This document shows, one piece after another, positions 2,739 to 64,000 of a stretch of 64,000 nucleotides of DNA (within the stretch, counting starts at the first letter, position 1; every line of letters begins with the position of its first letter). Where the stretch lies: sequence record OR352952.1. One strand, given 5' to 3'. A program made the translations under genes and the position numbers. This DNA is from Escherichia phage AV122. Under the pieces are notes generated by a model. The model was not told the DNA's origin, did no database searches, and was given only the letters and a program-made list of their open reading frames with translations.

Positions 2739-2806
2739 TTTTATTCTCCGAGATGTTTAATTGCGGTACAGGTATATAATATCATATCCTGTACCAAAGT
2801 AAACAA

Positions 2807-3139
2807 TTATTTTACTACTTTCCAATGTTGCATGTCAAGTTTACCAACTTTTTTCATCTTCTCAATCAAACGTTCGGCACGTTGGCGAGCTGTAACATAA
2901 TACCATTCACCTAATTCATTTTGTTCAATTTTTCCAACGATTACTGTATTCAATTCATAAATCCAACCAGTAAAGAAATTATGAACTTGAATTGTAAAGG
3001 TGAAATCTGTTCCCATACCTTCTGTTGTTTCTACTTCAATAATATCACCTTCAACTGCCATTAAGAACCACATAGTTTCATCATATTTACCATTGAAGCA
3101 TTTAGTTTTAACTGTAGCGTTCAGATTAATCGTTTTCAT
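2807..3139 (-). CDS. hypothetical protein
   Basis: 110-aa ORF with early promoter at 3167-3196 upstream. Confidence 0.6.
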   Translation of the reverse strand: MKTINLNATVKTKCFNGKYDETMWFLMAVEGDIIEVETTEGMGTDFTFTIQVHNFFTGWIYELNTVIVGKIEQNELGEWYYVTARQRAERLIEKMKKVGKLDMQHWKVVK

Positions 3140-3166
3140 TTTATTCTCCTTTGTTTGTATAAGATA

Positions 3167-3196
3167 ATACTATCACAAAGGAGCTATACTGTAAAC
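3167..3196 (-). promoter_or_regulatory. early promoter (sigma70-type)
   Basis: GTTTACA, 17 nt, TAGTAT on minus strand upstream of ORF ending 3139. Confidence 0.55.
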
Positions 3197-3215
3197 AACT
3201 TTATGCAATCTTTGG

Positions 3216-3244
3216 AAAATAAAAAAGGACTCCCGAAGGAGTCC
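3216..3244 (-). terminator. rho-independent terminator
   Basis: Hairpin GGACUCC-UUCG-GGAGUCC followed by U-run on minus-strand transcript. Confidence 0.55.
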
Positions 3245-3249
3245 TCAAC

Positions 3250-3468
3250 TTATGCTTTCTGCTTACCAAAACGAGAAGCATCATCTCGAAGAACCGCACG
3301 TGCTCGGCGCATGATCTTCTCAACAGTTTGATTGATACGAGAGTTCGACCCACGCTTGTAGCCAGCGCGTTTAGAATCACCAACTTTCTTTTCAACTGCT
3401 TTCTTTGCTTTAACTTGTTTTGCCATTATAAATTCTCTTTTAAATGAAAATGCAGGACTTATTGGCAT
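3250..3468 (-). CDS. small basic protein (alternative ATG at 3426)
   Basis: 72-aa ORF, Lys/Arg-rich; followed by terminator hairpin 3216-3244. Confidence 0.5.
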   Translation of the reverse strand: MPISPAFSFKREFIMAKQVKAKKAVEKKVGDSKRAGYKRGSNSRINQTVEKIMRRARAVLRDDASRFGKQKA

Positions 3469-3714
3469 TGCCTGCGCAAGCCCTCAAGGGGTACTTAGGT
3501 TTTGAATATTTACCGACAGGATAACCATAAACCTCGTCAACATACCACCAAGACTTACACAGATAACACTTTTCTGACGCATGATAGTAACATTCAAGAG
3601 GTACACCATAAAACTGCCGGGGTCTTAAAACTATAATGATTCGCAAATCATTAATCAGACAGTTCGACGGCTCCTCGATTTTAGCTCACACTAAGGCAGT
3701 GAATCTCCAATAAA

Positions 3715-3963
3715 TTACTTCAGTGTTACCACAAAGTGACGAACTGCTTTTCGTGCAGCAGAAGCCAGAGGCTTAGCATATTTAAGTTCATCTTTTTCCT
3801 GAAGCTCAGCAGCTAATGCAGTTTGAGCAGGATTCAGATGTTTGAAATAACGCAGGATTTCAAGAGCTTCGGCTTCAACATCAATAGATGCGCCATAGTT
3901 TTCGTGACCATTATTCCATGCGTTTCGTTGCAGTTCAAGAGCGTGTTGTAATTGTTTAATCAT
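3715..3963 (-). CDS. rIII: rIII lysis-inhibition accessory protein (by size and position)
   Basis: 82 aa, located between 30.x cluster and gene 31 as in T4. Confidence 0.7.
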   Translation of the reverse strand: MIKQLQHALELQRNAWNNGHENYGASIDVEAEALEILRYFKHLNPAQTALAAELQEKDELKYAKPLASAARKAVRHFVVTLK

Positions 3964-5964: not shown

Positions 5965-6197
5965 AGTACGCCATACACCCTTTGTGCTTCAACTAATCCA
6001 TCAAAATCCAATTTGAGATGTGTTATTTGGTCACCATCACCTGGATTCACAATTACTAATACTGAACGAGGAGTTTCGGTAATAACGCGAACCGATGTTT
6101 CTGGAAATCGTTCAGAAACCTTATTTACCAATTCCTGAGCAAATAGTTTAACTTTTTCTTGGAATTCTTTAACAGTAATTGGTTTTTCACTTAGCAT
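5961..6197 (-). CDS. hypothetical protein (cd.x cluster)
   Basis: 78-aa ORF. Confidence 0.55.
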   Translation of the reverse strand: MLSEKPITVKEFQEKVKLFAQELVNKVSERFPETSVRVITETPRSVLVIVNPGDGDQITHLKLDFDGLVEAQRVYGVL

Positions 6198-6718
6198 GTT
6201 AATCCCAGCTCCTTACTTTCAACGTTTTTAACTAATTTGACAGAAACTAATTCGGCATCTTGGGTAATCATTACCGGGCCTTCTTCATACTCTTCAAGAT
6301 ATTCTAGAGCTTTCTTTTTAGCTTCTTCCTTCGTATCAGTTTGAGCATAGATATAAAACATGCAACCAGTAATACCTACTACTTTCCACTTAATTTCTTT
6401 ATCAGTTTTAATTTCAAATTTACTGACAGAATCATCTTTTTGAACTTCTTCGAAAAAATAATATTCTGACATATAAGTAATTGAAAATAGCGGGCTATCT
6501 TTGTAGCATTCGCCCATTACATCAACAGCTTTATACCAGCAGTCATCAATTTCGCGTTTAATGCTAATAACATTTTTCGCAGGATCTATTTTTACTTTAA
6601 ATGAATTTTCCCCAATAAATTGAGCAATTCGTTTATTAGCCCCACAAGTTTCATTAAAAATATCTTTATATCCAGCTTTAAAGCGATAAACCTTATCTTC
6701 TTCAAACCATTCGCTCAT
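6191..6718 (-). CDS. hypothetical protein (cd.x cluster)
   Basis: 175-aa ORF with early promoter 6750-6779 upstream. Confidence 0.6.
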   Translation of the reverse strand: MSEWFEEDKVYRFKAGYKDIFNETCGANKRIAQFIGENSFKVKIDPAKNVISIKREIDDCWYKAVDVMGECYKDSPLFSITYMSEYYFFEEVQKDDSVSKFEIKTDKEIKWKVVGITGCMFYIYAQTDTKEEAKKKALEYLEEYEEGPVMITQDAELVSVKLVKNVESKELGLTC

Positions 6719-7260: not shown

Positions 7261-8675
<1,415 letters not shown>

Positions 8676-12952: not shown

Positions 12953-15217
12953 TCATAATTTACAGGATGAACAATCTTCAGCTTTTGGAGTTTCTATTTC
13001 ATAATCATCAGTACCGGAACCGTCGCGGGTATTATGATAATAGAAATTTTTTCCGCCAAAATACCAAAAATACAAAAGGTCATCAATCATTATTGACATT
13101 GGAACCTTTCCTTTTGGAAAAATCTGCGGGTCATAATATGTATTCGCTGAAGCTGATTGACATACCCATTTAAGCATAATAGCTACCTGCGTAAGATAAG
13201 GTTTATTACCTTTCTTAGCTAATTTCCACGTATAATCATACAGGTCTATGTTATGCTCAATATTGGGCACGACTTGATTAAAGGAACCCTCTTTTGATTC
13301 TTTAACAGAGACTGGTCCACGTGGAGGCTCGATACCGTTTGTACTGTTAGAAACTTGGGAAGATGACTCACATGGCATAAGTGCTGATAATGTGCTATTA
13401 CGGATGCCAAAGAGCTTAAGGTCTTCCCGCAGCGACGACCAGTCACAAACGTATTTTGGAGCTGCGATTTGGTCAATCTTTTTATTGTACCAGTCGATAG
13501 GTAATTCGCCTCGAGACCAACGAGTGTCTGAATAATATTCGCAAGGTCCTTTTTCTTTGGCGAGCTTAATGGATGCTTTAATGAGTCCATACTGTAATCT
13601 CTCAAATAGTTCATGTGTTAAATCGTTAGCATCTTCATAAGAAGCAAAATTACTTGCCAGCCAAGCTGCATAGTTAGTAACACCGACGCCAAGGTTTCGA
13701 CGCTTTTTAGCTTTTTCTGCTTCAGGAACTGGATATCCTTGGTAATCCAAAAGATTATCAAGAGCGCGTACTTGAACTTCTGCTAATTCATTAATTTTAT
13801 CTTGGTCTTGCCAATCGAAGTTATCCAACACAAACGCAGATAATGTACACAATCCAATTTCAGCATCAGGACTATTCACGTCATTTGTTGGAATAGCAAT
13901 TTCACAACACAAGTTACTCTGACGAATAGGTGCCTTTTCACGAATAAACGGAGTATAGTTATTCGTATTATCAATGAACTGTACATAAATCCTTGCTGTT
14001 CCTGAGCGTTCAGTCATGAGTAATTCAAACAGTTCACGCGCTTTAATACGCTTTTTACGAATATTAGGGTCTTTTTCTGCGGCTTCGTACAATTCACGGA
14101 AACGGTCTTGGTCTTTAAAATAAGAATAATAAAGTTCGCCACCCATTTCATGTGGACTGAACAAAGTAATGTAGTCGTTCTTTCCAAAACGTTCCATCAT
14201 CAAATCATTCAGCTGGACGCCATAATCCATATGACGGATACGGTTTTCTTCTACACCTTTGTTATTTTTCAAAACGAGAAGATTTTCAACTTCCAAATGC
14301 CAAATAGGATAATAAGCAGTAGCAGCGCCGCCACGAATTCCGCCTTGTGAACATGATTTAACTGCAGTCTGAAAATGTTTCCAAAAAGGAATAACACCAG
14401 TATGACGTACTTCACCCATGCCAATCTTAGAACCTTCGGCACGAATCATACCAACATTAATACCAATTCCAGCGCGTTTAGAGATATATTCAACAATTGA
14501 AGCGGAAGCCTTATTGATAGACTTCAATGAATCACCTGCCTCAATAACAACACATGAACTAAACTGTCGAGTCGGAGTACGACAACCAGCCATAATAGGA
14601 GTTGGCAATGAAATCTGTCGAGTAGATACTGCTTCATAAAAACGGATAACATGTTTTAATCTATCAACAGGTTCATCTTGATGCAGTGCCATTCCAATAG
14701 TCATAAATGCAAACTGCGGAGTTTCATAAATTTGACCGGTGGTTTTATCTTTGACTAGATATTTTTCTTTTAATTGCATCGCTCCGGAATAAGTAAATTC
14801 CATATCCCGCTCGTGCTTAATTTTTGATTCTAAAAATGTAATTTCTTCCGCAGAATATTTTGACAATAATTCAGGGTCATATTTCCCTTCATTTACGCAA
14901 TAAGAAATATGGTCAATAAATGAACGCGGTTCATACTGCCCGTAAACATGCTTACGAAGAGCAAACATTAAACAGCGTGCAGCTACATATTGATAATCAG
15001 GCTCTTCAACCGAAATAGAATTCGCAGCAGCCTTAATGACAATAGTCTGAATATCATCAGTTGTCATTCCATCACGGAGATAAGATTTAATATTTTCATA
15101 TAATTCATAAGGATCTACTGATGTTCCTTCAGCTGCCCAAGATAAAACTTTAATAATTTTTTGTGGGTCGAAGCTCTGAGAAACACCACTACTTTTGATA
15201 ACATTAATTAATTGCAT
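12953..15217 (-). CDS. nrdA: ribonucleotide reductase large subunit
   Basis: 754 aa; class Ia RNR catalytic motifs incl. NLCCEI and C-terminal CxxC. Confidence 0.93.
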   Translation of the reverse strand: MQLINVIKSSGVSQSFDPQKIIKVLSWAAEGTSVDPYELYENIKSYLRDGMTTDDIQTIVIKAAANSISVEEPDYQYVAARCLMFALRKHVYGQYEPRSFIDHISYCVNEGKYDPELLSKYSAEEITFLESKIKHERDMEFTYSGAMQLKEKYLVKDKTTGQIYETPQFAFMTIGMALHQDEPVDRLKHVIRFYEAVSTRQISLPTPIMAGCRTPTRQFSSCVVIEAGDSLKSINKASASIVEYISKRAGIGINVGMIRAEGSKIGMGEVRHTGVIPFWKHFQTAVKSCSQGGIRGGAATAYYPIWHLEVENLLVLKNNKGVEENRIRHMDYGVQLNDLMMERFGKNDYITLFSPHEMGGELYYSYFKDQDRFRELYEAAEKDPNIRKKRIKARELFELLMTERSGTARIYVQFIDNTNNYTPFIREKAPIRQSNLCCEIAIPTNDVNSPDAEIGLCTLSAFVLDNFDWQDQDKINELAEVQVRALDNLLDYQGYPVPEAEKAKKRRNLGVGVTNYAAWLASNFASYEDANDLTHELFERLQYGLIKASIKLAKEKGPCEYYSDTRWSRGELPIDWYNKKIDQIAAPKYVCDWSSLREDLKLFGIRNSTLSALMPCESSSQVSNSTNGIEPPRGPVSVKESKEGSFNQVVPNIEHNIDLYDYTWKLAKKGNKPYLTQVAIMLKWVCQSASANTYYDPQIFPKGKVPMSIMIDDLLYFWYFGGKNFYYHNTRDGSGTDDYEIETPKAEDCSSCKL

Positions 15218-15534: not shown

Positions 15535-15751
15535 ATTGTTTTTCCGTTAAAACAGTAATATCGTAGTAACAGTCAGAAGAAGTTTTAACTGTGGAAATTT
15601 TATTATCAAAATACTCACGAGTCATTTTATGAGTATAGTATTTTTTACCATAAATGGTAATAGGCTGTTCTGGTCCTGGAACTTCTAACTCGCTTGGGTT
15701 AGGAAGTGTAAAAAGAACAACGCCAGAAGTATCTTTAAATCGTAAAATCAT
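15488..15751 (-). CDS. hypothetical protein (nrdA.2 position)
   Basis: 87-aa ORF. Confidence 0.5.
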
Positions 15752-16608
15752 ATTGCCATTTTCCCTTTAATTGCTGGATGCGATTCATAATTTTCAAGGA
15801 TAAAATCTTTCGGTTTCATGTATTCAGTTAACCAGTAAAGCTGTGTTTCGGTGTCACAATTTCCAAACTCTATAGGCCAATCAATTTTAAGTTCACATAG
15901 TTCTTTAGGCTCACGACGTAAAATTTCTTTACATTGCTCAGTATGATTCATATAGATGTGAGTATTACCACCAGAAAATATCAAATCTCCTGGGATAAGA
16001 TTACACATCTTAGCCACAATATGCGTCAAGGCAGCGTACGAGGCAATGTTGAATGGCAATCCCAAGAAAACATCTACACTTCTTTGGTACCATTGTAAAT
16101 CAAGATAACCATTACGCACATTAAACTGATAGAACATATGACAGGGCGGTAATGCCATTTGATTGATTTCAGCTGGATTCCATGCTGAAACGATTTGACG
16201 TCGATCAGTTGGTAATTTTTTAATACGATCAATAGTTTCAACTAATTGATCCACACCGCCGAAATCACGCCATTGTTTACCGTATATAGGACCAAGTTCA
16301 CCACTATGATATCCTAGGTCTTTAGCCTGGTTTTCATAGTTATCGTCCCAAATAGTTTTACCTTGAATAAGACTACCATGTGTGCGAAGACGTAAATCAT
16401 TAACATTGGTAGAACCGGAAATAAACCATAGAAGCTCAGCAATGCATGCATTCCACGCAAGCTTCTTAGTTGTTACCGCAGGAAAACCTTTAGTTAAATC
16501 CCAACGTAATTTAGTACCGAACAAAGCAATTGTTCCTGTGCCTGTTCGGTCATCGGTTTCATAGCCATTTTCAAAAATGTCTTTAATTAAATCTTGGTAT
16601 TGTTTCAT
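15748..16608 (-). CDS. td: thymidylate synthase, uninterrupted
   Basis: 286-aa continuous ORF; ThyA active-site region PCH and folate-binding motifs. Confidence 0.93.
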
Positions 16609-16653
16609 TTAGTACCTTATATAAATTATAATACATTTTATGAAGCTAAATAA

Positions 16654-17001
16654 TCAATACGGTTTAGCATCAAATTTTCTCTCAATTTCAGGCGTGAAAT
16701 ATAATTCTTTACCGCGTTTGGAAAAGCGACCAATAATATGATAATTATTCTCATCAAACGTGATATTACCAATATCCATAGCTTTCAACCAAATATCGAT
16801 ATTTCTATCCAGCTTTATGTCAAAATTCCAATACGCAGAACTATTACCGAAAATACTGCAAGCGGATTCAGTGAAACAACTGCTATAAATCTTGTCTTTA
16901 GGAACTACTAATTGATATACACCTTTAATAAACTGAGGACCCTGCCACTTTGGTTGTTTCTCATCTTTTTCTAATAGAATAGGGTAATAATTAAAATTCA
17001 T
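16654..17001 (-). CDS. hypothetical protein inserted between frd and td
   Basis: 115-aa ORF; no recognisable motif. Confidence 0.55.
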   Translation of the reverse strand: MNFNYYPILLEKDEKQPKWQGPQFIKGVYQLVVPKDKIYSSCFTESACSIFGNSSAYWNFDIKLDRNIDIWLKAMDIGNITFDENNYHIIGRFSKRGKELYFTPEIERKFDAKPY

Positions 17002-17020
17002 ATTTCCGCCACGCGTTATT

Positions 17021-17847
<827 letters not shown>

Positions 17848-17858
17848 ATTATCTCCTA

Positions 17859-18191
17859 TTAAAAAGGATCAGGAACATATCCGCTAGCTTTAATCATTTT
17901 AATTAACGTTACCATTCCTTTGTTAACTGCTCGTGAGATTTCATCAAAAACTTCATCACTAAAAAGTTCTAACACGCCCTTCTGAACTTTTAATTTACAG
18001 CCAACAATTTCTTCATCGCCTATAGTAAATTCATTACCACCAATTCCACCGAAAAACTTAATTACACCAGTTAACTGTCTTCCACGAGAATATGGGTCGT
18101 GTGATAAAGTAATATGAGTCACCCCGGGTACAGTTTTAAATTGGCAGCGAATATTTACTTGTGAAATTCCAGTTACATGAATGTCAGACAT
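17859..18191 (-). CDS. hypothetical protein (frd.x cluster)
   Basis: 110-aa ORF. Confidence 0.6.
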   Translation of the reverse strand: MSDIHVTGISQVNIRCQFKTVPGVTHITLSHDPYSRGRQLTGVIKFFGGIGGNEFTIGDEEIVGCKLKVQKGVLELFSDEVFDEISRAVNKGMVTLIKMIKASGYVPDPF

Positions 18192-18201
18192 AATATTTTC
18201 C

Positions 18202-18444
18202 TCAAATAGACTTTTTCACAATTTTCCAATCAGCTTTAAACTGATCGACGTCAGAATGATAAATCCAGAATCCTGCGCTTTCTCCATCTTCATAAAGCGG
18301 ACACCCATCACATTCATCTTCCCATCCCATGCCACGTAAAAGGTGTTCAGCTTTTTCAACAAGTTCAGAATCTTTACCGATGATATTAAAATACCATTTA
18401 CCTCTAACTTCTGAATCTTTGATGCTCTGGCGTTGTAATCTCAT
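18202..18444 (-). CDS. hypothetical protein (frd.x cluster)
   Basis: 80-aa ORF; early promoter 18473-18502 upstream. Confidence 0.55.
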   Translation of the reverse strand: MRLQRQSIKDSEVRGKWYFNIIGKDSELVEKAEHLLRGMGWEDECDGCPLYEDGESAGFWIYHSDVDQFKADWKIVKKSI

Positions 18445-19301: not shown

Positions 19302-20210
19302 TTAAAGGTCATTCAAAAGGTCATCCAGGTCCGTGTCATCAGCACTAGATGAACTGCCAGAGCTTGAGCTCATAAAATCATCTTCAGTTTTTGTATTGAA
19401 GTCATCAACATTGAATGCATCCAAATCATCAGCAACTTTATCAGCTTTCTTAGCAGCAGTTGCAGCGGCACCGCCCATCACAGCAGTTCCCATAACTTGA
19501 CCGAATTTAGTATTCAGTTCTTCAAACGATTTGAATTTATCTTTAGAAGTCATTTCAGAAAGGTCAACCATTTGTTCGAACAGTTCTTTCTGGAAAGATT
19601 CATCGTCAATGTTTGGAATCGCAGATTGATTCAGGAATTTAGATTCATCGTAGTTACTAAATCCAGAAACCTGTTTAACTTTCAGTACAAAGTTAGCGCC
19701 TTCCCACGGACAAGTTACATCAACCGGAGTTTCACCCATTTCAACATCAACCGCAATCATCGCGTTGATTTTATCCCAGATTTTCTTACCGAAACGATAT
19801 TTAAATACTTTACCTTCATTTTCTGGAGCAGCTGGGTCTTTTACTACAAGAATGTTAGCCCAGTAAGAAGTTTTACGTTTAACAAGACTGTACTCTTTAT
19901 TGTCAGTGTTGTACAAATCATTTTTACTGATGTACTGACATACTGGACAAGAATCGTAATCACCGTGGGTAGATGAGCAATTTTCGATATACCATTTACC
20001 GTTTTTCTTGAAACCGTGATTTACAAGAATTGCGAATGGTGCTTGTTCATCATTTTTAGACGGAAGAAAACGAATTACTGCTTGACCGTTACCCGCATTG
20101 TCGAGTTTCAGTTTCCACTCGCCTTTATCTTCAGAAGAAAAACCACCTTTATTTCCAGCCAGTTTAGCCATTTGTGCAGCGAGTTCAGCAGTAGATTTAC
20201 GTTTAAACAT
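19302..20210 (-). CDS. 32: single-stranded DNA-binding protein gp32
   Basis: 302 aa; [24 protein letters not shown]-terminus and acidic C-terminal tail recognised as gp32; terminator immediately downstream. Confidence 0.95.
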
Positions 20211-28305: not shown

Positions 28306-31300
28306 ATGGCTACTTTAAAACAAATACAATTTAAAAGAAGCAAAACTGCAGGTCAACGTCCTGCTGCTTCAGTATTAGCCGAAGGTGAATTGGCTATAAA
28401 CTTAAAAGACCGTACTCTTTTTACTAAAGATGACTCGGGAAATATTATTGATTTAAGCATTACCGCTGGCGGTAATATTAGTGGAAATATCACTCAAACT
28501 GGCGATTATACACAGACTGGAAAATTTAATTTAATTGGTCCGCAAATTGTAGCAAGCGGTGGATATATTGAGTTTAATTATCGTACTACTGGAAGTGGGG
28601 CTTGGTCCGGTCAACACACTGCAAAAGCTCCAATTTTTGTAGATTTAAGCTCAGCTACTTCCACATCTGAATATAATCCTATAATTAAACAGCGCTTTAA
28701 AGATGGTACTTTTTCATTAGGTACTTTAGTTTCTGAAGGTTCGTTGAAGATTCATTATATCAATGAATCTGGCGATTCGAAATATTGGACGTTTCGACGT
28801 GACGGCGGATTTACTGTTGACGGTGGAGGTTTAGCAGTATCAGGAGGTAGTATAACTACAACCGGAAATATTGCAGCTCTCGGAAATATTACTTCGCCTC
28901 AGATTAATACTAAAAATATTATTTTAGATACAAAAGCATTTGGACAATACGACAGTCAGTCTTTAGTTAATTACGTATACCCGGGCACCGGTGAAGAAAA
29001 TGGTATAAACTATCTTCGTAAAGTTCGGTCTAAATCAGGTGGAACTATTTACCATGAAATTTGTACAGCTCAGACTGGGCTAGCTGATGAAGTTTCTTGG
29101 TGGACTGGTAATACACCGTTATTTAAACTATACGGTATTCGTAACGACGGTAGAATGATTATTCGCAATAGCTTGGCCATCGGGACCGTGACTGAAGGAT
29201 ACCCGTCAAGCGATTATGGAAATACCGGGGTAATGGGAGATAGGTATTTAGCTATTGGCGATAATGCTTCTGGACTTAAATGGGTTCGTACTGGCGTTTA
29301 TGACCTGATGGCTAATGGTATTTCATCTGCTACCATTTTGAACAACGGTATTAACAGCACCAAGAAATTGATGGTTGGTTATAGTCGAGATTCCGGTTCT
29401 ACTTGGGATTTTCCAAATAACAACCAGGCAATGTTTACTGCGCGTACCGATGTTGATGGTAATAATAACGGTGATGGGCAAACTCATATCGGTTATAACA
29501 GTAATTCTAAAATGTATCACTATTTCCGTGGTGCAGGTCGTATGTCCGTTAGTATGGGCGATGGACTTCTTGTTGAGCCGGGTATTTTAGACATTAAAAC
29601 TGGGTCTAATAGAGTTGCTATTAGAGCAGATGGTACATTTGACTCAACCCAACGTATTTCTATGCGTACGGGCTTGTTTTTAAATGGTGATGATAATACT
29701 AATGCTTTATCGTTTAAAGCTCCTACCGGTGTTGACGGAACCAAAACCATTAACTGGGATGCAGGCACTCGTAACGGACAGAATAAAAATACTGTTTCAA
29801 TTAAAGCATGGGGTAATGCCTTTAACTCAGTTCCCGGTATTAGAGAAACTGTATTTGAAGTATATGATTCACAAGGTTATTATTTTTATTCACAACGCCA
29901 GCGCCCAGAAGGTTCTGAAACTGTTGGGCCCGTTGTAACCCAGTTCAATGGACCAGTTAATGCTAACGGCTCTATTAGCACTGCAGGAAATCTTAAAGTT
30001 GATGGTTTAAGCACTTTAAACGGTAATGTTACAATGAAGAACGGCTTGTTTGTCCAAGGTGGTTCTTCTATTACTGGGCAAGTTAAAATCGGCGGAACAA
30101 CAAATGCATTAAGAATTTGGAATGCCGAATATGGCGCTATTTTCCGTCGTTCAGAAAGTAACTTTTATATTATTCCAACCAATAAAAATGAAGGCGAAAG
30201 TGGAGACATTCACAGCTCTTTAAGACCTGTGAGAATAGGATTAAACGATGGCATGGTTGGGTTAGGAAGAGATTCTTTTATAGTAGATCAAAATAATGCT
30301 TTAACTACTATAAACAGTAACTCTCGCATTAATGCCAACTTTAGAATGCAATTAGGACAAAATGCTTATATAGATATTGAGGCTTCTGATGGAGTTCGCC
30401 CAACAGGTTGTGGTTCCTTTGCATCTCAGAATGACGTAAACGTCAGAGCTCCAATTTATATGAATATAGAGCGTACTGCTACTTCTGAATACATTCCTAT
30501 TGTTAAACAACGGTATGTAAAGGGTGATAGTACTTATTCTATTGGTACCTTGATTTCTCAGGGAGACTTCCGCGTCCATTATCACCAGGGAACTAGCACC
30601 AATGGCGTAGATTTGAGTTGGGAATTCCGTCGCACAGGCGATTTCCGCGCGCCAGGTAAAATTATTGCCGGTGCTGCTACTCTTGGCACGGATGGTAATA
30701 TTACTGGCGGTTCTGGTAACTTTGCTAACTTGAACACAACTATCGAATCATTAAAAACCGATATTGTTTCAAGTTACCCAATCGGTGCTCCTATTCCATG
30801 GCCAACGGATACTCCTCCTGACGGTTACGCTATTATGGAAGGCCAGACCTTTGATAAGTCTGCATACCCAAAATTGGCTATGGCTTACCCATCTGGCGTA
30901 ATTCCAGATATGCGCGGGCAAACTATCAAGGGTAAACCAAGTGGTCGTGATGTATTAAGTGCAGAAGCTGATGGTATTAAGGCTCATAGCCATAGTGCAT
31001 CGGCTTCAAGTACTGACTTAGGTACTAAAACCACGTCAAGTTTTGATTATGGTACTAAAACATCTTCAAGTTTTGATTATGGTACGAAGAACACTAATAG
31101 TACTGGTGGTCATACTCACTCTGTAAGTGGTACAACAAGTGCTGCTGGTGAGCATGCTCACCACTTAGGTCTGTTATTAGTTAACGGTGGTGATGCTTTG
31201 TACGGGTATACAACCGTTGGTAACAGCCTCCCTAGAACACTTGACTGGCTTGACAGAAGAGACAATAAATTCCCCAACACTAACACAACTGGTAACCATA

Positions 31301-31509
31301 CACATACATGGTCTGGCACTACAAGCAATGCTGGTGCTCATACACATACTGTAGGTATTGGTGCTCATACACATACTGTAGGTATTGGTGCTCATACTCA
31401 CTCGGTAGCAATTGGTTCGCATGGTCATACTATCACTGTAAATAGTACAGGTAATACAGAAAACACGGTTAAAAACATTGCTTTTAACTATATCGTTCGT
31501 TTAGCATAA
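28306..31509 (+). CDS. 37: long tail fibre distal subunit gp37 (receptor-binding tip)
   Basis: 1067 aa; C-terminal His-rich GxHxH repeats; tandem coding repeats. Confidence 0.92.
31021..31090 (+). repeat. tandem 30-nt coding repeat in gene 37
   Basis: GGTACTAAAA..AGTTTTGATTAT repeated 2.3 times, encoding GTKT[TS]SSFDY. Confidence 0.8.
31333..31440 (+). repeat. tandem 27-nt coding repeat in gene 37 (His-rich)
   Basis: GGTGCTCATACACATACTGTAGGTATT x2 exact plus two diverged copies, encoding GAHTHTVGI. Confidence 0.8.
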
Positions 31510-38889: not shown

Positions 38890-39153
38890 TCATAGTTCAA
38901 TCTCAATGATTTCCAGGTGTTTTTGTTTTATTGCCTTTTTAACACAATCATGGACTAAATATGACCATGAATCATTATATTCTCCATTAACTAATCGTTG
39001 GAGATCTTCACGTGATGATAAGTAAGGTTGATCTGATTCCCATTTTGATAAAAATACTGCAGTAAAAATATCTCCTTCACCTGTAGTTGAAGTCGTAAAT
39101 GCAATAAATTCACCGGTAATTTTATGTTTAGCGTAATAAAATTTAAATTTCAT
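38890..39153 (-). CDS. hypothetical protein (start trimmed)
   Basis: 87 aa from ATG 39153; promoter 39181-39210 lies inside track extension. Confidence 0.5.
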   Translation of the reverse strand: MKFKFYYAKHKITGEFIAFTTSTTGEGDIFTAVFLSKWESDQPYLSSREDLQRLVNGEYNDSWSYLVHDCVKKAIKQKHLEIIEIEL

Positions 39154-39180
39154 TTTTACTCCTCCGTAGCTGATAGTTGT

Positions 39181-43462: not shown

Positions 43463-43492
43463 ATTATACCACATCCTTGTGGTAAAGTAAAC
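43463..43492 (-). promoter_or_regulatory. early promoter upstream of rIIA.1/rIIA
   Basis: GTTTACT, 17 nt, TATAAT. Confidence 0.55.
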
Positions 43493-45309
43493 TACTGACT
43501 CATCCATTCTTTGCGAAGGTCAGCATTATCTCCCATGAGCATTTCAAAAAGCTCTTTCCAATTCTCAGGAAGTTTAACAACATCATATACTGGGTTTTGA
43601 ATCATCTCACGATATTCAGATTTTTCCAAAGAGCCAAGTCCCTTAATATAACGGATGCTATGTTTAGGTAGAGCATCTTTGGCACTCTCATATTCAGCGA
43701 CTGTATAAAACCATTCTTGTTTTTTACCGACCTGAGCGATGATTACAGGAGTTTTGACGAAACGAATTCTTCCTTGTTCAAACAGTTCTGGCCAATTACT
43801 AAAAAATCCGAGCAGAGAAGGATAAATGCTCCCTAGACCATCATGGTCAGCATCAGTCATAATAGCAATATTATGATAATTCAAGTTTTCAGCTTTTTCA
43901 CCAAGAACTAATCCAGTGATTGCGCAAATGTCAAACAGTTCTTTGTTTTTAAGCATATCGGCATATGACATACCCCAACTGTTGAGAACTTTACCACGCA
44001 ATGGATAACCACCATGAAGTTCTTTATCACGAACATCAATAAGATATCCGATAGCAGAATCACCCTCAGTCAAGAAAAGAGTAGTGTCAGCGTCTTTACC
44101 ACAAAGATTCGCTTTAATATGTTTATGAACCTTAGCTTTAGAAGCCTTTTTAGCTGCTTTAGTTTCTGCTGCTTTTTCTGCCGCCAATTTACGAGCCAAG
44201 GCAGCTTCAATAATTGGCATCAGAATTGCTTCATTATTTAGAATAGCGCGTGAAATCTTTTTAGCGTCAAGTTGAATATGACTACGAATTTCGCCAAATG
44301 GAGAAGTCAAACGCTCTTTAGTTTGAGAATCAAATCGCATGTTTTTCATATCACGAACAAACATAACGATAGTCAAACATTCTTTAACACGCGCTTTAGT
44401 TACATCAATTTTGAACTTACGTTTGATTTGTGGAATAAGGTCTTCACAAATATCATCCATAACACAGTCAATGTGATGGCCACCATTCTTAGTATGAATG
44501 TTATTGACGTATGTTAATTGACGAAAACCATCCGGTGAACGACCAACCGCAATAGAACAATTTTCTTGTTCTTGAACAATAGCATGCTCATCATATTGGC
44601 GTGCATATTTCTTAAAATTACCCTGAACCTTTTTACCATTAAAGGTAAATTGAATATCAGGATAAACTACTGCAAGTGTCTGGAGGCGATCTAATGTAAT
44701 GTCAAGATAAACTTGAGATAGCTCATTAGTTTCAAATGACATAAAATCAGGAATGAAAGTAACACGTGTTCCTTTCCATTTTCCAGGAATAGTTTCCCAT
44801 GATTTATTTTCCATGCCATTTGAACAACGAACTACAATATTATTTTGACCGTCGCCAGTTTCACCGACAAACATCACAGAAAAAATGTTTGTCAAACTAG
44901 AACCAACACCGTTCATACCGCCGGTGACGCGTTCTTTATCATCACCGAAGTTACCACCTGCTTTTGGAATAGTCCACGCAGCAACAGGACCAGGAATTTC
45001 TTCACCTGTAGGTGTTTTAACCATCGCCTGTGGAATACCACGACCGTTATCTTCAACTGTTACTTGATTGTTTTTAATAGTAACATTAATTTTATTTGCG
45101 AATTTAAACTTAGTACGAATACCTTCATCTACTGAGTTATCGATAATTTCATCAATAAGCTTAACAAGACCAGGTACATACTGAACACTTTCCCATTTAC
45201 CAAACAGAAAGCGCTCATGCATTTCATTAGCAGAAGAGCCAATGTACATGCCGCTACGCTTTTTGATATGTTCAATATCGCTCAGAATTTTAATTTCATT
45301 CTTAATCAT
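43492..45309 (-). CDS. 39: DNA topoisomerase II large subunit gp39, uninterrupted (includes region encoded by gene 60 in T4)
   Basis: 605 aa from second Met; GyrB-like ATPase and TOPRIM motifs; continuous through ...GLVLGEKAENLNYHNIAIMTDADHDG... Confidence 0.93.
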   Translation of the reverse strand: MIKNEIKILSDIEHIKKRSGMYIGSSANEMHERFLFGKWESVQYVPGLVKLIDEIIDNSVDEGIRTKFKFANKINVTIKNNQVTVEDNGRGIPQAMVKTPTGEEIPGPVAAWTIPKAGGNFGDDKERVTGGMNGVGSSLTNIFSVMFVGETGDGQNNIVVRCSNGMENKSWETIPGKWKGTRVTFIPDFMSFETNELSQVYLDITLDRLQTLAVVYPDIQFTFNGKKVQGNFKKYARQYDEHAIVQEQENCSIAVGRSPDGFRQLTYVNNIHTKNGGHHIDCVMDDICEDLIPQIKRKFKIDVTKARVKECLTIVMFVRDMKNMRFDSQTKERLTSPFGEIRSHIQLDAKKISRAILNNEAILMPIIEAALARKLAAEKAAETKAAKKASKAKVHKHIKANLCGKDADTTLFLTEGDSAIGYLIDVRDKELHGGYPLRGKVLNSWGMSYADMLKNKELFDICAITGLVLGEKAENLNYHNIAIMTDADHDGLGSIYPSLLGFFSNWPELFEQGRIRFVKTPVIIAQVGKKQEWFYTVAEYESAKDALPKHSIRYIKGLGSLEKSEYREMIQNPVYDVVKLPENWKELFEMLMGDNADLRKEWMSQ

Positions 45310-45336
45310 CACTTATCCTCGTTTGGTTTCGGGAAT

Positions 45337-45378: not shown

Positions 45379-45648
45379 TTATTTAAAACGAATAGTCGAA
45401 TCCTTGAAGAATAGTCCAGAACATACTGTTCCTTCTACTTTCTGCCCAGTAGGTCCAATAGCACGAAATCCAGTATGCTGGAAATCATTTTCAGAGCAAC
45501 CGAACCAATTATATCCAGTGATTTCAATATTAGTAAAACCACTTGAAGACAAAACTTTGGTTGCATTATCAGCATCAGTACATCCTATTAAAGACACTGC
45601 TAATACTAATGCTGCAATAGAACGATTAATATATTTCATAATTTTCAC
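45379..45648 (-). CDS. putative lipoprotein (39.1 position)
   Basis: 89 aa; signal peptide with lipobox LIGC. Confidence 0.6.
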   Translation of the reverse strand: MKIMKYINRSIAALVLAVSLIGCTDADNATKVLSSSGFTNIEITGYNWFGCSENDFQHTGFRAIGPTGQKVEGTVCSGLFFKDSTIRFK

Positions 45649-46016
45649 TTAAATTTAATGGCTTGAAGAAGACTAATAATTCTTAAACGGCTTCTTTCAT
45701 CTTTAACTGTAAAGGAAAGAGGGTCGCCAGATTTCATGGTAATAGTGCATTCAAAATCAAAATCTTCTGTGACTTCTTCGAAGAAGTCAAATTCTTCAGC
45801 ATAAATTAGAACATTACTCTGACAACTATGAAGAATTTTTCCATCATTTCCAGATGCTGTACTAATCATTGTAACATTATGACCTTTCATATCTTCAACG
45901 ATAAATTCACTAGTCAATATTACAGCATTAATAGAACTATTCCTATTACTAGCAGAAAGTAGATATTTCTGTTCTTCACCTTCACGAATGCGATATTTCT
46001 TACCGATTTTAAACAT
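45645..46016 (-). CDS. hypothetical protein (39.2 position)
   Basis: 123-aa ORF. Confidence 0.6.
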   Translation of the reverse strand: MFKIGKKYRIREGEEQKYLLSASNRNSSINAVILTSEFIVEDMKGHNVTMISTASGNDGKILHSCQSNVLIYAEEFDFFEEVTEDFDFECTITMKSGDPLSFTVKDERSRLRIISLLQAIKFK

Positions 46017-46851: not shown

Positions 46852-47121
46852 TTAATTGAACAGTGGAGCGATGCGTTTCAGAAGAGTAGCAGCACCTTTG
46901 GCAAATTTTACATCATGAAAAACAGTTTCTTCTTCCGTTACAACACGAGCTTTAATGTTTTCACAATCCCAATTTTTGCGAACAATCTTCAAAAGCTGCA
47001 GTAAATCTTTACATTCAGCAATATCGATAACACATCCACGAGAATCTTCCATTATCGCACGATAACCGTAAGCCATACCATAATCATTGAAAGATTGCTC
47101 GATGATAATTAAATTTTCCAT
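46852..47121 (-). CDS. hypothetical protein (cef.1 position, start trimmed)
   Basis: ATG 47121 with GGAG SD; track TTG extension overlaps promoter. Confidence 0.5.
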   Translation of the reverse strand: MENLIIIEQSFNDYGMAYGYRAIMEDSRGCVIDIAECKDLLQLLKIVRKNWDCENIKARVVTEEETVFHDVKFAKGAATLLKRIAPLFN

Positions 47122-47785: not shown

Positions 47786-48328
47786 TTAATTCAAAATAGC
47801 TACCACTGCACTACGAGGTACTACGCTAAAATCACCTGCATGAACAACGTTCAGAAGTTCAACACCATCTTCAATCCACTGGTCTGTTACCCAACCACAG
47901 ACCGAAATAAATGGGGTCTTGATAGCTACTGCACGAGTCAAAAGGTCAGTAGGATCAACTTCTTGGAAGAGGATAATCTCTGCTTCAAAGACTATAGTTT
48001 TAATTACTTCATCATTATCTAAGCGATGTGCTCGAATCACGTAAGCTTTATTCTTATCATGCCAATTACTTTTTGAAAAACTTTTAACCACAAACTCACC
48101 TTCACCAAAAACACTGGTCAATGCTTTATAACCCAAATTTAGTTCAGTAGTTTTAATTTCAGTTTCAACCAGTTTGTAGGTTTTGCCAGTTTCGATGGTC
48201 CGAGCAGTCATAAATGTTTCCTTAATTTCTAATGGTTTAACAAGAGTGCCGTACATGCTTGCTATATCCATATCAAACGGTTTATCTACAGGATTCGGTG
48301 TGTATTCAGGATTATAATTAAATTTCAT
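47786..48328 (-). CDS. MotB paralog (motB.1 position)
   Basis: 180 aa; shares TDQW[IV]EDGV[EK]L motif with motB ORF. Confidence 0.6.
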   Translation of the reverse strand: MKFNYNPEYTPNPVDKPFDMDIASMYGTLVKPLEIKETFMTARTIETGKTYKLVETEIKTTELNLGYKALTSVFGEGEFVVKSFSKSNWHDKNKAYVIRAHRLDNDEVIKTIVFEAEIILFQEVDPTDLLTRAVAIKTPFISVCGWVTDQWIEDGVELLNVVHAGDFSVVPRSAVVAILN

Positions 48329-48330
48329 AA

Positions 48331-48843
48331 TTATCTCATTTCAATAAAATCTACAAGTTCAGCATGGGATTTACGGAACATTACTTGATGCCCACCAATG
48401 ATAACTTGGTCATCTGGCACTTCATAAATCGCAATGTACATTCCACGATCTTTTAAGTCTTCACGCTCTTCTCGGGTGAACCATCTCATCATATCATATT
48501 CAGTAGCGAAAGCAAAATGATATAATGCAATAAACCACAATGGAATATAATTTTCAATTCGTGAATAATCTTTATTCCATTTAGTTTTAATAGCATCATT
48601 AGCATTTTCAACTAATAACTTATCATCGTGCGGAATAGGAATACTTTCATGACTTTCATAATTATCGCTATGATGATGAAATGACGATGAATTAATACCG
48701 CAAAATTTTAGCCAAGTTCGAGTTTTCATAGAATCAAATCCACGATAAGGAGTTGATTGAACGCATAACTCTTGCCTAATTTTCATTATACCACTATCAT
48801 CATTTAATGCGCTAAACGATGATTCAACACGATAAATTTTCAT
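48331..48843 (-). CDS. hypothetical protein (motB.2 position, start trimmed)
   Basis: 170 aa from ATG 48843; promoter 48871-48900 inside track extension. Confidence 0.55.
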   Translation of the reverse strand: MKIYRVESSFSALNDDSGIMKIRQELCVQSTPYRGFDSMKTRTWLKFCGINSSSFHHHSDNYESHESIPIPHDDKLLVENANDAIKTKWNKDYSRIENYIPLWFIALYHFAFATEYDMMRWFTREEREDLKDRGMYIAIYEVPDDQVIIGGHQVMFRKSHAELVDFIEMR

Positions 48844-50085: not shown

Positions 50086-50317
50086 ATTTAATTAGTAATT
50101 TACAGACACTTTCATCTAGTGTAATTACCGTATCTGTATTACTGTGATATGATTGTTTTTCAATTCGTTTAATTGCTAATATAGTATCACTTATAAGATA
50201 AAGCTTGTGAAGGAGCTCAGCTCCTGTTACCATAACATCGAGATTATCTTGCTTATTAGTATGCTTCCTTATACCATCTATTAGACGATTTAAATATTTT
50301 GAATTGATGTTAATCAT
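50057..50317 (-). CDS. hypothetical protein (third small ORF between dexA and dda)
   Basis: 86 aa. Confidence 0.5.
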   Translation of the reverse strand: MININSKYLNRLIDGIRKHTNKQDNLDVMVTGAELLHKLYLISDTILAIKRIEKQSYHSNTDTVITLDESVCKLLIKFEEAIRGNN

Positions 50318-50323
50318 ATAGCC

Positions 50324-56525: not shown

Positions 56526-56735
56526 TTAAATTACATGATTATTTATAATAAATTCTCGCGGAACGTTAAAATATCCGATTTTAGTTAATATAACAACATC
56601 ACCGTTAATAATTACCGGAGAATAATCTTCTGGAGCATTAAATTTCCAATGGGCTCTAATATTATATCCATCAGAACCAAATGCTCGAGTAGCCGGTCTC
56701 CCGGCTTTTTGCCACGCGTAGAAATCAAATTTCAT
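56526..56735 (-). CDS. hypothetical protein (soc.1 position)
   Basis: 69 aa. Confidence 0.5.
   Translation of the reverse strand: MKFDFYAWQKAGRPATRAFGSDGYNIRAHWKFNAPEDYSPVIINGDVVILTKIGYFNVPREFIINNHVI
56540..56547 (-). promoter_or_regulatory. late promoter box for soc
   Basis: TATAAATA on minus strand 31 nt upstream of soc ATG. Confidence 0.6.
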
Positions 56736-56932
56736 TTTGAATGCTCTATAATTAATTTTAAGGCTTCTTCGCTGACAAAAATTTCGTCAGGACCTTCTTC
56801 TATAACCCAATCAACCATACGAAGTTGATTAGTTAAGAGCTCACATACGAGCTCCTTGTTATAATCTTTAAATAGCTGGTTAATACGTTTCTTATGGGCT
56901 TTCTTAAGCTGACGCTTATTTAAACGAGCCAT
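56732..56932 (-). CDS. hypothetical protein (soc.2 position)
   Basis: 66 aa. Confidence 0.5.
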   Translation of the reverse strand: MARLNKRQLKKAHKKRINQLFKDYNKELVCELLTNQLRMVDWVIEEGPDEIFVSEEALKLIIEHSK

Positions 56933-57450
56933 TAATAACCTCGGTCTTGACGAGCGAAGTTTTCAGCATTTTTCAGGTAATAAAGTTTAAAGATTTCTTC
57001 AGCTGACATTCCAAGAGCAATAAATTTATTCATGAAAAAGTGAAATTGGTCAATCAGTTCAAATTTAATTTCAAGCTGATCTTCGGGAGATAAATCTTGA
57101 ATTTTCTTGGATTGCATTTCAGAATAACGTTTCTTCCAAGGTTTCCATACAGCAGAAGCTTCTTTTTCACCATTACTCATACCACCAAGAGAAGTATATA
57201 GTTCGCGAGTTTCATCTGCGATATAATCGTCTTGGTTTCGCAACCAAGCAAGAACTTCTCCTGCGGTTTCAAGTGAATCAGGATGACGATTTGTTTCTGG
57301 TTTATCATTAGCCAAACGAATCTGTAAATGCCGCTGCATATCAAGCATAACCTGCAGTGGGTCAATATTGTGCATAATATTCTCAGCATATGCACGATTT
57401 GCTTTATCAACACCTTCGATCAAATGAGCACATTCATTAAAGTAAGCCAT
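56932..57450 (-). CDS. 56: dCTPase/dCTP pyrophosphatase gp56 (MazG-like)
   Basis: 172 aa from ATG 57450 (MAYFNECAHLIEGVDKA) with AAGGA SD; track start is GTG extension. Confidence 0.9.
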   Translation of the reverse strand: MAYFNECAHLIEGVDKANRAYAENIMHNIDPLQVMLDMQRHLQIRLANDKPETNRHPDSLETAGEVLAWLRNQDDYIADETRELYTSLGGMSNGEKEASAVWKPWKKRYSEMQSKKIQDLSPEDQLEIKFELIDQFHFFMNKFIALGMSAEEIFKLYYLKNAENFARQDRGY

Positions 57451-58960: not shown

Positions 58961-59272
58961 TGGCGCAGTAATATTTTCTGCATCATTTAGCAAATCATTA
59001 ATTTCATCAGATAGCATAACACATGTACCTTTATTTCCTGTAATTGTTACTGCACAATTACGAACGTTTTCTTTATCAAATTTTAGGTTAATATTTTCGT
59101 AGTGAAAATCCTTTAATGCCGAATATATCTTTAAAATGAAATTGTCTTTTACTACAATAAACCCAACCTCACTATTAAAACGCGGTTCATGGAAACTGTA
59201 ATAAACCTTTTCATCTATAAAATCGTATGAAATTTTTTCCATTTTTAAATATGAAAATTCAGAACTATACAT
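58916..59272 (-). CDS. hypothetical protein, truncated paralog of next ORF
   Basis: 118 aa; C-terminus SIDDQIFNAFMNRG shared with 208-aa ORF. Confidence 0.55.
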   Translation of the reverse strand: MYSSEFSYLKMEKISYDFIDEKVYYSFHEPRFNSEVGFIVVKDNFILKIYSALKDFHYENINLKFDKENVRNCAVTITGNKGTCVMLSDEINDLLNDAENITAPSIDDQIFNAFMNRG

Positions 59273-62547: not shown

Positions 62548-63703
62548 TTAGCTGATCTAGGTCAGTTTCTAAATCAGCAGCTGATTTACTTTTACTTTCT
62601 GGAGATTTAAATTTTTCAACTTTTGAGTTAATTAATTCATCAACTTCCGCTTCAACAATTTCATTACTATCAATAGCACCTAACTGATAAGCACGCTTAA
62701 TAGCATCACGGAATGGTTGATGCTTAAATAAAGGACCCCAGAATGTAGTGCAGTTGGTATCTTTTGCACGCCAAGATTTTTCTTCGCGAATCATCTCGCC
62801 GGTTTCTTCATCAAGAAATTCACGAGCATACCAACCATTTTTAGGTTTTACCACGAATCCTAATTCTAGAGCCATATCTAACAATCCAGAATAAGGATCG
62901 ATACCACCGTCAAATTTAACATCAATAAAGAATTTACTTTTTTCTTTAACGGTACGAGATTTTTCTACATTTAGAACAAATTGATACCCCTGAAGATCAG
63001 AACCATCTTTAATTTGACGTTTACCGATAATGAATACAGTATCAGCCGAATACATTACGCCTGTACCACCTGTCATCACGGTTTTACTAAACATTTCAAT
63101 TGTTTCAATTGTATGGTTAACCGCAACGCATGGAATATTTTTAATGCTAAAGTAAGGAGTAACAATACGGAATAATGACTTCAGCGATTTAGCACGAGTC
63201 ATATCTGCCACAGATTTTTCATTCAAGGCATCTTCAGTTTCTTTCTTAGAAGCCATATTACCGATTGAGTCGATGAATACAATAACTTTTTCACCGCGCT
63301 CAATAGCTTCAAGCTGATTCACCATATCAATTTTCAGCTGTTCAACTGACTGGATTGGCGTATGAATTACTCGTTCCGGGTCAACTCCCATGGATCGCAA
63401 ATAAGCTGGAGTAATACCAAATTCGCTATCATAGAATAGACAAACCGCGTCAGGATATTTGTTCAAATACGCCGCAACCATAGTCAAAGACATATTTGAT
63501 TTAAAGTGTTTAGAAGGACCTGCAAAAATAGTTAAACCAGACTGCATGCCGCCATCAATCGCACCAGAAATAGCAATATTAAGCATTGGAATTTTTGTAC
63601 GAATTACATCCTTTTCATTAAAGAATTTAGATGTAGTCAGTTCAGCAGTCATTTTAGAAGTGGAAGCTTTAATCAAACGGGATTTTAAATCTGCAATAGA
63701 CAT
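62522..63703 (-). CDS. uvsX: UvsX recombinase (RecA-like)
   Basis: 393 aa; Walker A GPSKHFKS; recognised as T4 UvsX. Confidence 0.95.
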   Translation of the reverse strand: MSIADLKSRLIKASTSKMTAELTTSKFFNEKDVIRTKIPMLNIAISGAIDGGMQSGLTIFAGPSKHFKSNMSLTMVAAYLNKYPDAVCLFYDSEFGITPAYLRSMGVDPERVIHTPIQSVEQLKIDMVNQLEAIERGEKVIVFIDSIGNMASKKETEDALNEKSVADMTRAKSLKSLFRIVTPYFSIKNIPCVAVNHTIETIEMFSKTVMTGGTGVMYSADTVFIIGKRQIKDGSDLQGYQFVLNVEKSRTVKEKSKFFIDVKFDGGIDPYSGLLDMALELGFVVKPKNGWYAREFLDEETGEMIREEKSWRAKDTNCTTFWGPLFKHQPFRDAIKRAYQLGAIDSNEIVEAEVDELINSKVEKFKSPESKSKSAADLETDLDQLSDMEEFNE

Positions 63704-63756
63704 TCATTTTTTCCATAGGCATCATTATATTTTCCTCACTGGTTAAAGATAGAGTA

Positions 63757-63780
63757 ATTATAACACAATAAATTTAGGCA
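63757..63780 (-). promoter_or_regulatory. possible middle-type promoter upstream of uvsX
   Basis: TATAAT with TGCCTAA (MotA-box-like) 11 nt upstream. Confidence 0.3.
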
Positions 63781-64000
63781 TTAATCAACTGCTATTGGAT
63801 GAATAGCATTAAACTTATGAAATGCTTCTGATTTTTCTTTACGCGAAACACACATGCGAAGAACCTTTAATGGCTCGTCTTCTTCACCCAACGATTTTCG
63901 TTTTTCAATATTCGACGTTTTCCAACGAGCTTGCTCTGGAAACTCTCTATTGATTTGCTCAAGCGCTCTATTATGTTTAGAATTACTACGAATTGAACTA
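63781..64000 (-). CDS. 3' end of unidentified ORF (5' part beyond window)
   Basis: Open frame on minus strand ending ...KSEAFHKFNAIHPIAVD with stop at 63781-63783. Confidence 0.4.
   Translation of the reverse strand, partial: SSIRSNSKHNRALEQINREFPEQARWKTSNIEKRKSLGEEDEPLKVLRMCVSRKEKSEAFHKFNAIHPIAVD

Follow-up and report, generated by a model that had tools for sequence, protein, structure and literature searches.

The 115-codon open reading frame (ORF) that lies between frd, the gene for dihydrofolate reductase (DHFR), and td, the gene for thymidylate synthase (TS), in Escherichia phage AV122 is best explained, with a probability that we put at about 0.75, as an ordinary functional accessory gene of T-even phages (PHROG 1928) that is ancestral in the Tevenvirinae and has been lost by T4; what its product might do is graded separately below. 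An earlier note on this DNA had stated that the frd stop and td start overlap in T4, and had described the ORF as an extra one, inserted between the two genes. The overlap agrees with the coordinates of T4 (NC_000866), in which frd occupies 145109-145690 and td ends at 145112, giving a 4-bp ATGA overlap. The description stands in its first half: the ORF is extra with respect to T4, but "inserted" has to be given up, since homologues are in place across genera and it is T4 that would carry a deletion. T4 is a poor reference at the frd–td junction, "extra relative to T4" should not imply "inserted", and the textbook overlap is probably a derived deletion, present in about 5% of sequenced relatives.

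By the window we mean the whole stretch of 64,000 nucleotides that was analysed. It comes from a Tequatrovirus (T4-type), shares no more than about 97% identity with any deposited genome, and is collinear with T4 from 127,117 through the end of that genome to 23,555. On the minus strand the genes run gene 32 (19302-20210), frd.2, frd.1 (18202-18444), two small ORFs, frd, the 115-aa ORF, td, nrdA.2, nrdA.1 and nrdA (12953-15217). The features of the junction are collected in Table 1. The gap between frd and td amounts to 412 bp (19-bp spacer, 348-bp ORF and 45-bp spacer), in keeping with the earlier estimate of about 410 bp containing a 115-aa ORF, and blastn against T4 leaves positions 16612-17015 unmatched.

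Table 1. Features of the frd–td junction in the window, in the order in which they are read on the minus strand.
Feature	Position	Strand	Basis or remark
frd (dihydrofolate reductase, 193 aa)	17021..17602	minus	Pfam DHFR_1, E=4e-19; boundaries match RB18 annotation
Direct repeat ATGAAA, left copy	17019..17024	minus	Sequence reading; overlaps frd stop; identical in T6 and RB18
416-bp segment absent from T4	16609..17024	minus	Junction comparison; placement 16603-17018 equally valid (6-bp repeat)
19-bp spacer between frd and 115-aa ORF	17002..17020	minus	Aligns with coding 3' tail of JoYop frd
115-aa ATG ORF, 348 bp, PHROG 1928 member (= RB32ORF229c)	16654..17001	minus	ORF listing and PHROG match
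45-bp spacer between 115-aa ORF and td	16609..16653	minus	Sequence reading; kept in T6 and RB18
Direct repeat ATGAAA, right copy (td codons 1-2)	16603..16608	minus	Sequence reading
td (thymidylate synthase, 286 aa), intronless	15748..16608	minus	Pfam Thymidylat_synt, E=7e-96, residues 2-286

Several details of this layout matter for what follows. A longer frd ORF (17021..17629) is open, and the start that reads MIKLVF, equivalent to that of T4, gives the tabulated gene, which is 96% identical to T4 frd at the DNA level and ends in a TGA at 17023-17021. The left copy of ATGAAA begins a vestigial mini-frame, ATG-AAA-TAA, and has its homologue, ...AACGAAATAG..., in the extended frd tail of JoYop. 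Within the 19-bp spacer, a weak Shine-Dalgarno-like GGCGGA stands 4 nt upstream of the ATG of the 115-aa ORF, and the 45-bp spacer, in place of which JoYop has 13 bp, holds the td ribosome-binding site (AAGG, 16618-16615). The same spacer holds a candidate MotA-box-like TTAGCTTCA (16649-16641, minus strand), followed at middle-promoter-like spacing by TATAAT (16630-16625) or TAATTT; this element (16625-16649 region) is kept in T6 and RB18 and missing from JoYop, and it could give td a promoter of its own in ORF-bearing phages. Promoter and terminator scans gave scores no higher than those of shuffled sequence, and the spacers have no Rfam match for a structured RNA. As for td itself, the group I intron with I-TevI that T4 carries (T4 143544-144564) has no counterpart between window positions 16056 and 16061. 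The part of td that corresponds to exon 1 (16061-16611) is 83.8% identical to T4, as against 96% for frd and about 90-93% downstream, making the frd–td junction a sharp mosaic boundary in identity to T4.

The ORF segment is one of 15 segments of the window that are without a T4 counterpart. Close by, between frd and frd.1, T4 has 71 bp and the window has two minus-strand ORFs without T4 counterpart, 17602-17847 (81 aa, phrog_3183) and 17859-18191 (110 aa, Pfam DUF7247, phrog_3566), both of which are annotated as hypothetical in RB18 and T6. Thirteen more segments of at least 100 bp have no T4 blastn match: 6197-6715, 8356-8668, 28456-28918, 29262-29717, 31059-31375, 38916-39162, 45642-46013, 46914-47111, 47899-48342, 50093-50323, 56548-56968, 58961-59269 and 63692-64000. 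Those at 28.4-31.4 kb lie in the divergent distal tail-fibre (gene 37/38) region, and the remainder are probably small accessory ORFs. Conversely, selfish elements of T4 are missing here, namely the nrdB intron with I-TevIII, nrdB.1 with mobE, segG and segF (junctions at about 12225/12228, 12901/12957, 20273/20309 and 56547/56969); the phage is poor in homing endonucleases relative to T4. A single 606-aa ORF (43492-45312, minus strand) spans the gene 39 and gene 60 that are split in T4, and 64 bp replace T4 2794-3910, a stretch that comprises the 50-nt translational-bypass region, the 5' part of gene 60, 60.1, mobA and the 3' end of gene 39; this phage therefore has an unsplit topoisomerase subunit and no bypass element.

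Is the 115-aa ORF a gene at all? Residues 4-111 of its product align with positions 2-125 of the 126-position PHROG 1928 profile at E=3.2e-36. All informative pairs of homologues give pairwise dN/dS of 0.01-0.09 at dS up to 0.4, and the window and JoYop copies, for example, differ by 19.5 synonymous and 3.5 non-synonymous changes; with dN/dS this low, the gene must be taken as functional. On this sequence evidence, it is a real and strongly conserved small phage gene. It is also a gene already known: hundreds of T-even records list its product as hypothetical, and the RefSeq annotation of RB18 calls it "hypothetical protein ... RB32ORF229c". In T4, the junction is fused by the ATGA, and a search of all 168,903 bp, translated in six frames, with the family profile yields no homologue (best E=1.4); the earlier note had named the same ORF in T4 as the observation that would overturn its claim, and the ORF is missing there. 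Six-frame searches with the same profile likewise found no paralogue elsewhere in the T4 genome or in the window.

By tblastn, 581 phage records encode the protein or a homologue, 362 of them at 90% identity or more (including T2, T6, RB18 and many phages of Escherichia, Shigella and Yersinia) and 219, from other genera of Tevenvirinae, at 26-46%. The junction itself was surveyed with a T4 query that runs from the 3' end of frd through td exon 1 into the intron, in a spread sample of 60 records. Among the Tequatrovirus records in that sample, 4 have the fused junction, about 14 have an additional 206 bp, about 37 have an additional 416 bp containing the 115-aa ORF, and 2 have an additional 387 bp in which the 115-aa ORF overlaps frd; the ORF is present in about 65% of them. 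A 40-nt probe that seeds solely on the fused junction found that junction in only 32 records, about half of which are T4 isolates and sequence records. The arrangement in the window is the majority state, and that of T4 is the rare one. Of the phages that the earlier note had proposed for a junction comparison (T4, T2, T6 and the RB phages), T2, T6 and RB18 carry the ORF; the segment measures 416 bp in the window and T6, 417 bp in RB18 and 0 in T4 and FL12. The +206-bp allele, seen in about a quarter of Tequatrovirus records, carries a 68-aa ORF (phrog_9550) that in Escherichia phage vB_EcoM_FT (locus positions 897-1103) is coupled to frd by ATGA and to td by TAATG. We considered whether this allele might be a truncated form of the 115-aa ORF, which is ruled out, as the two have no protein or DNA similarity.

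The related loci that were read include those of 15 genomes in IMG/VR, of three from other genera in GenBank and of two contigs from metagenomes; all of the loci have a family member directly 3' of frd and 5' of td. This synteny is kept even where frd is only 42-53% identical to that of the window (Jiaodavirus, Kanagawavirus, Moonvirus and other Tevenvirinae), and outside Tequatrovirus the start of the ORF overlaps the frd stop. A second, distantly related paralogue often comes next in tandem, and was confirmed in Moon (2787-3134), Entb_45 (2817-3176), and CBH8 and EcS1 (3380-3667; all in locus coordinates), the one in Moon matching PHROG 1928 at E=3e-37; similarly sized second ORFs occur in two more loci (L026, 4332-4673; L027, 3781-4137). 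Ancestrally there may have been two members in tandem between frd and td, one of which survives in Tequatrovirus and neither in T4.

Which way did the change go? The frd gene of JoYop is 12 codons longer than that of the window and overlaps the start of the ORF, as in other genera. This JoYop frd tail can be aligned with the 19-bp spacer found in the window, T6 and RB18, the two differing by a 2-bp indel that produces in the latter an earlier TGA and the string ATGAAATAA. Moreover, excising one ATGAAA together with the intervening DNA yields the T4 and FL12 junction base for base, although a 6-bp repeat would be expected by chance roughly 1 time in 10 in such AT-rich DNA. We take the ORF-bearing state as ancestral because of the position of the ORF across genera, the rarity of the fused junction and the homology of the spacer with the JoYop frd tail. 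That the ORF is ancestral to the frd–td operon of Tevenvirinae, with T4 as the derived exception, is well supported by these comparisons but not proven, the direction of the deletion resting on parsimony and junction homology. In the series of events that we propose, an ancestral overlap of frd and the ORF would have been followed, in one Tequatrovirus lineage, by a 2-bp indel that truncated the frd tail to ...AAATGAAATAA... and left the 19-bp spacer; the T4 lineage would then have lost the whole 416-bp cassette between that ATGAAA and the initial ATGAAA of td, and the outcome would be the well-known ATGA overlap of frd and td. Could the ORF instead have been lost by co-conversion with the td intron through I-TevI? 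Linkage of this kind fails, since ORF and intron occur together in T6, IME340 and others, are both missing from FL12, and are separated in T4 and F1, which carry just the intron.

The protein belongs to a small family. Scanned exhaustively with HMMER, 1.84 billion representative proteins yielded only 23 clusters, nearly all of 95-116 aa (two long representatives with repeated partial matches, P0021 and P0024, were excluded as probably spurious), and those clusters whose genomic source was examined all come from T4-like phages; a profile search among 5.8 billion proteins did not carry the family beyond these phages. Two motifs persist in full-length homologues as little as 26% identical, one close to the N-terminus (LLExDxxQ(K/P)KW) and one close to the C-terminus (IIGRFxKxG). 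Q16, W19, G27, G91, K95 and G97 are invariant, L9, Y29, N79, F93 and F102 nearly so, and the family alignment has no conserved acidic residue, His or Cys. That the protein has no recognisable motif, as had been remarked from the sequence, is upheld by sequence and profile searches, which found no significant match in Pfam, NCBIfam, PADLOC or the PDB; nor do the 24 family members have a consistent Pfam match even at E up to 10. A match to HlyIII (E=0.088) is noise, the protein being without a hydrophobic segment. It is predicted to be soluble and mildly basic (pI 7.7, family median 8.6).

From the 24-sequence alignment, AlphaFold2 gave a confident model (pLDDT 91.9, pTM 0.84) with the element order b(6-12), b(27-34), b(62-64), helix(68-77), b(80-82), b(86-96), b(99-104). 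A Foldseek search of the PDB with this model reached at best E=0.35, mostly with SSB and RPA, and a structure search of BFVD returned only uncharacterised proteins of other T4-like phages. The model has no significant structural neighbour, and its resemblance to an OB fold is weak. We read the product as a small beta-rich protein, possibly a very divergent OB-like barrel, and as non-enzymatic because there are no conserved catalytic residues. A literature search found no published mention of the ORF, and a review of T4 mobile elements is silent on it. Deep conservation, strong purifying selection and a confidently predicted orphan fold together make this gene a reasonable low-cost target among the unknown genes of T-even phages.

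What, then, might such a protein do? With low confidence, we suggest a dispensable, auxiliary, non-enzymatic binding factor of the phage nucleotide-precursor/replication machinery. The product would be a small, soluble, mildly basic protein built of a beta-barrel and a helix, with strands in an OB-like order (b1-b2-b3-helix-b4-b5). In the model, the b1-b2 loop and the b4-b5 hairpin carry the conserved Trp, Tyr, Phe, Lys and Arg residues, and the protein would work through a bound partner, whether nucleic acid or another protein. It would share its early/middle transcript with DHFR and TS, and in most genera its translation would be coupled to that of frd. Adjacency to frd and td and overlapping stop and start codons are weak evidence of a functional link, gene order in T4-like phages being generally conserved, and T4, F1 and FL12 manage without the gene.

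This dispensability, and the replacement of the gene by phrog_9550, would fit a host-interaction or anti-defence gene equally well. On that account, which we hold to be about as probable as the first, the evolutionary history would be the same, but the protein would have no link to DHFR or TS, and the junction would be a plastic cargo slot. The slot is indeed polymorphic in Tequatrovirus (empty, or holding either the 115-aa ORF or the unrelated 68-aa ORF), T4 and other phages can do without the gene, cargo of this kind is common, to judge from the 15 window segments that T4 lacks, and an orphan fold and sequence are typical of counter-defence proteins. Yet one fixed position across genera, combined with so low a dN/dS, is unusually stable for genes in an arms race and speaks somewhat against this account. 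The protein also has no PADLOC match at E up to 10, a weak test in that PADLOC covers defence and not anti-defence proteins, and neither a literature mention nor any other defence-related match was found.

A more specific version of the binding-factor proposal is also more speculative, and we think it rather improbable: PHROG 1928 might be a third, non-catalytic component of the thymidylate cycle, of unrecognised fold and made stoichiometrically with DHFR by way of the stop/start overlap, serving either as a scaffold or adaptor that joins DHFR and TS to the dNTP-synthetase/replisome complex or as an RNA-binding regulator of the frd-td message. If this were true, T4, the model phage in which the complex was defined, would have lost one of its components.

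Far less probable is a recent origin of the ORF as a free-standing homing endonuclease or selfish cassette inserted between frd and td. Such an origin would account for presence and absence among close relatives and for the short direct repeats at the boundaries; seg and mob endonucleases abound in T-even genomes, and several GenBank records from the BASEL collection in fact name the product a "putative homing endonuclease". However, no GIY-YIG, HNH, LAGLIDADG, PD-(D/E)xK, EDxHD or other nuclease domain is found in the 24 family members, none of the invariant residues is an Asp, Glu or His or a Tyr or Arg of the GIY-YIG kind, and at 115 aa the protein is far below the T4 seg and mob enzymes, which are mostly of about 140-265 aa. 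The position is fixed across genera whose frd genes are highly diverged, the left spacer derives from the frd tail, and presence of the ORF is independent of the td intron. The methods of the BASEL paper describe comparative annotation and nothing specific to this gene. The endonuclease label is largely refuted by these comparisons; we reject it as unsupported, and as it is spreading in GenBank, it should be dropped. Least of all is the ORF a frame left open by chance in a non-coding spacer, or a pseudogene in decay, a reading to which an AT-rich genome, a short ORF, a weak Shine-Dalgarno sequence and the lack of a domain match might lend some colour, but which is already refuted by the excess of synonymous changes, full-length homologues that share motifs down to 26% identity, and a confident fold prediction.

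The preferred reading, an ancestral T-even accessory gene lost by T4, can lastly be set beside known systems. The T4 free-standing endonucleases, Seg (GIY-YIG) and Mob (HNH), resemble the 115-aa ORF in being encoded by small intergenic ORFs that are patchy among T-even phages, but the ORF differs from them in having no nuclease motif or catalytic residues, in its much smaller size and in its synteny across genera. Among folds, we list the OB-fold nucleic-acid-binding domains of SSB, RPA14/32, S1, HIN, Teb1 and RecO for comparison; the model has an OB-like order of strands and helix and no significant structural match. The 68-aa ORF of vB_EcoM_FT-type phages sits in precisely the slot of the 115-aa ORF, with ...TATATAAATGA as its left and ATGAAACAATACC as its right boundary, but it is unrelated to the 115-aa ORF (BLASTP E=12), is coupled on both sides and makes a 206-bp insert. 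The homologues in Jiaodavirus KPV15, Kanagawavirus Entb_45, Moonvirus Moon, Serratia phage CBH8 and Escherichia phage EcS1 are 26-46% identical, of the same size and in the same place after frd; in these phages, frd stop and ORF start overlap, and td is preceded by another paralogue and sometimes by further small ORFs, whereas the window has a single copy with a spacer on either side. Closest of all is RB32ORF229c as it occurs in T2, T6, RB18 and most Tequatroviruses, 96-99% identical, 115 aa long and in the same position between frd and td, from which the window copy departs in no essential way, having two private substitutions, E14 (also in one metagenomic contig) and A56.
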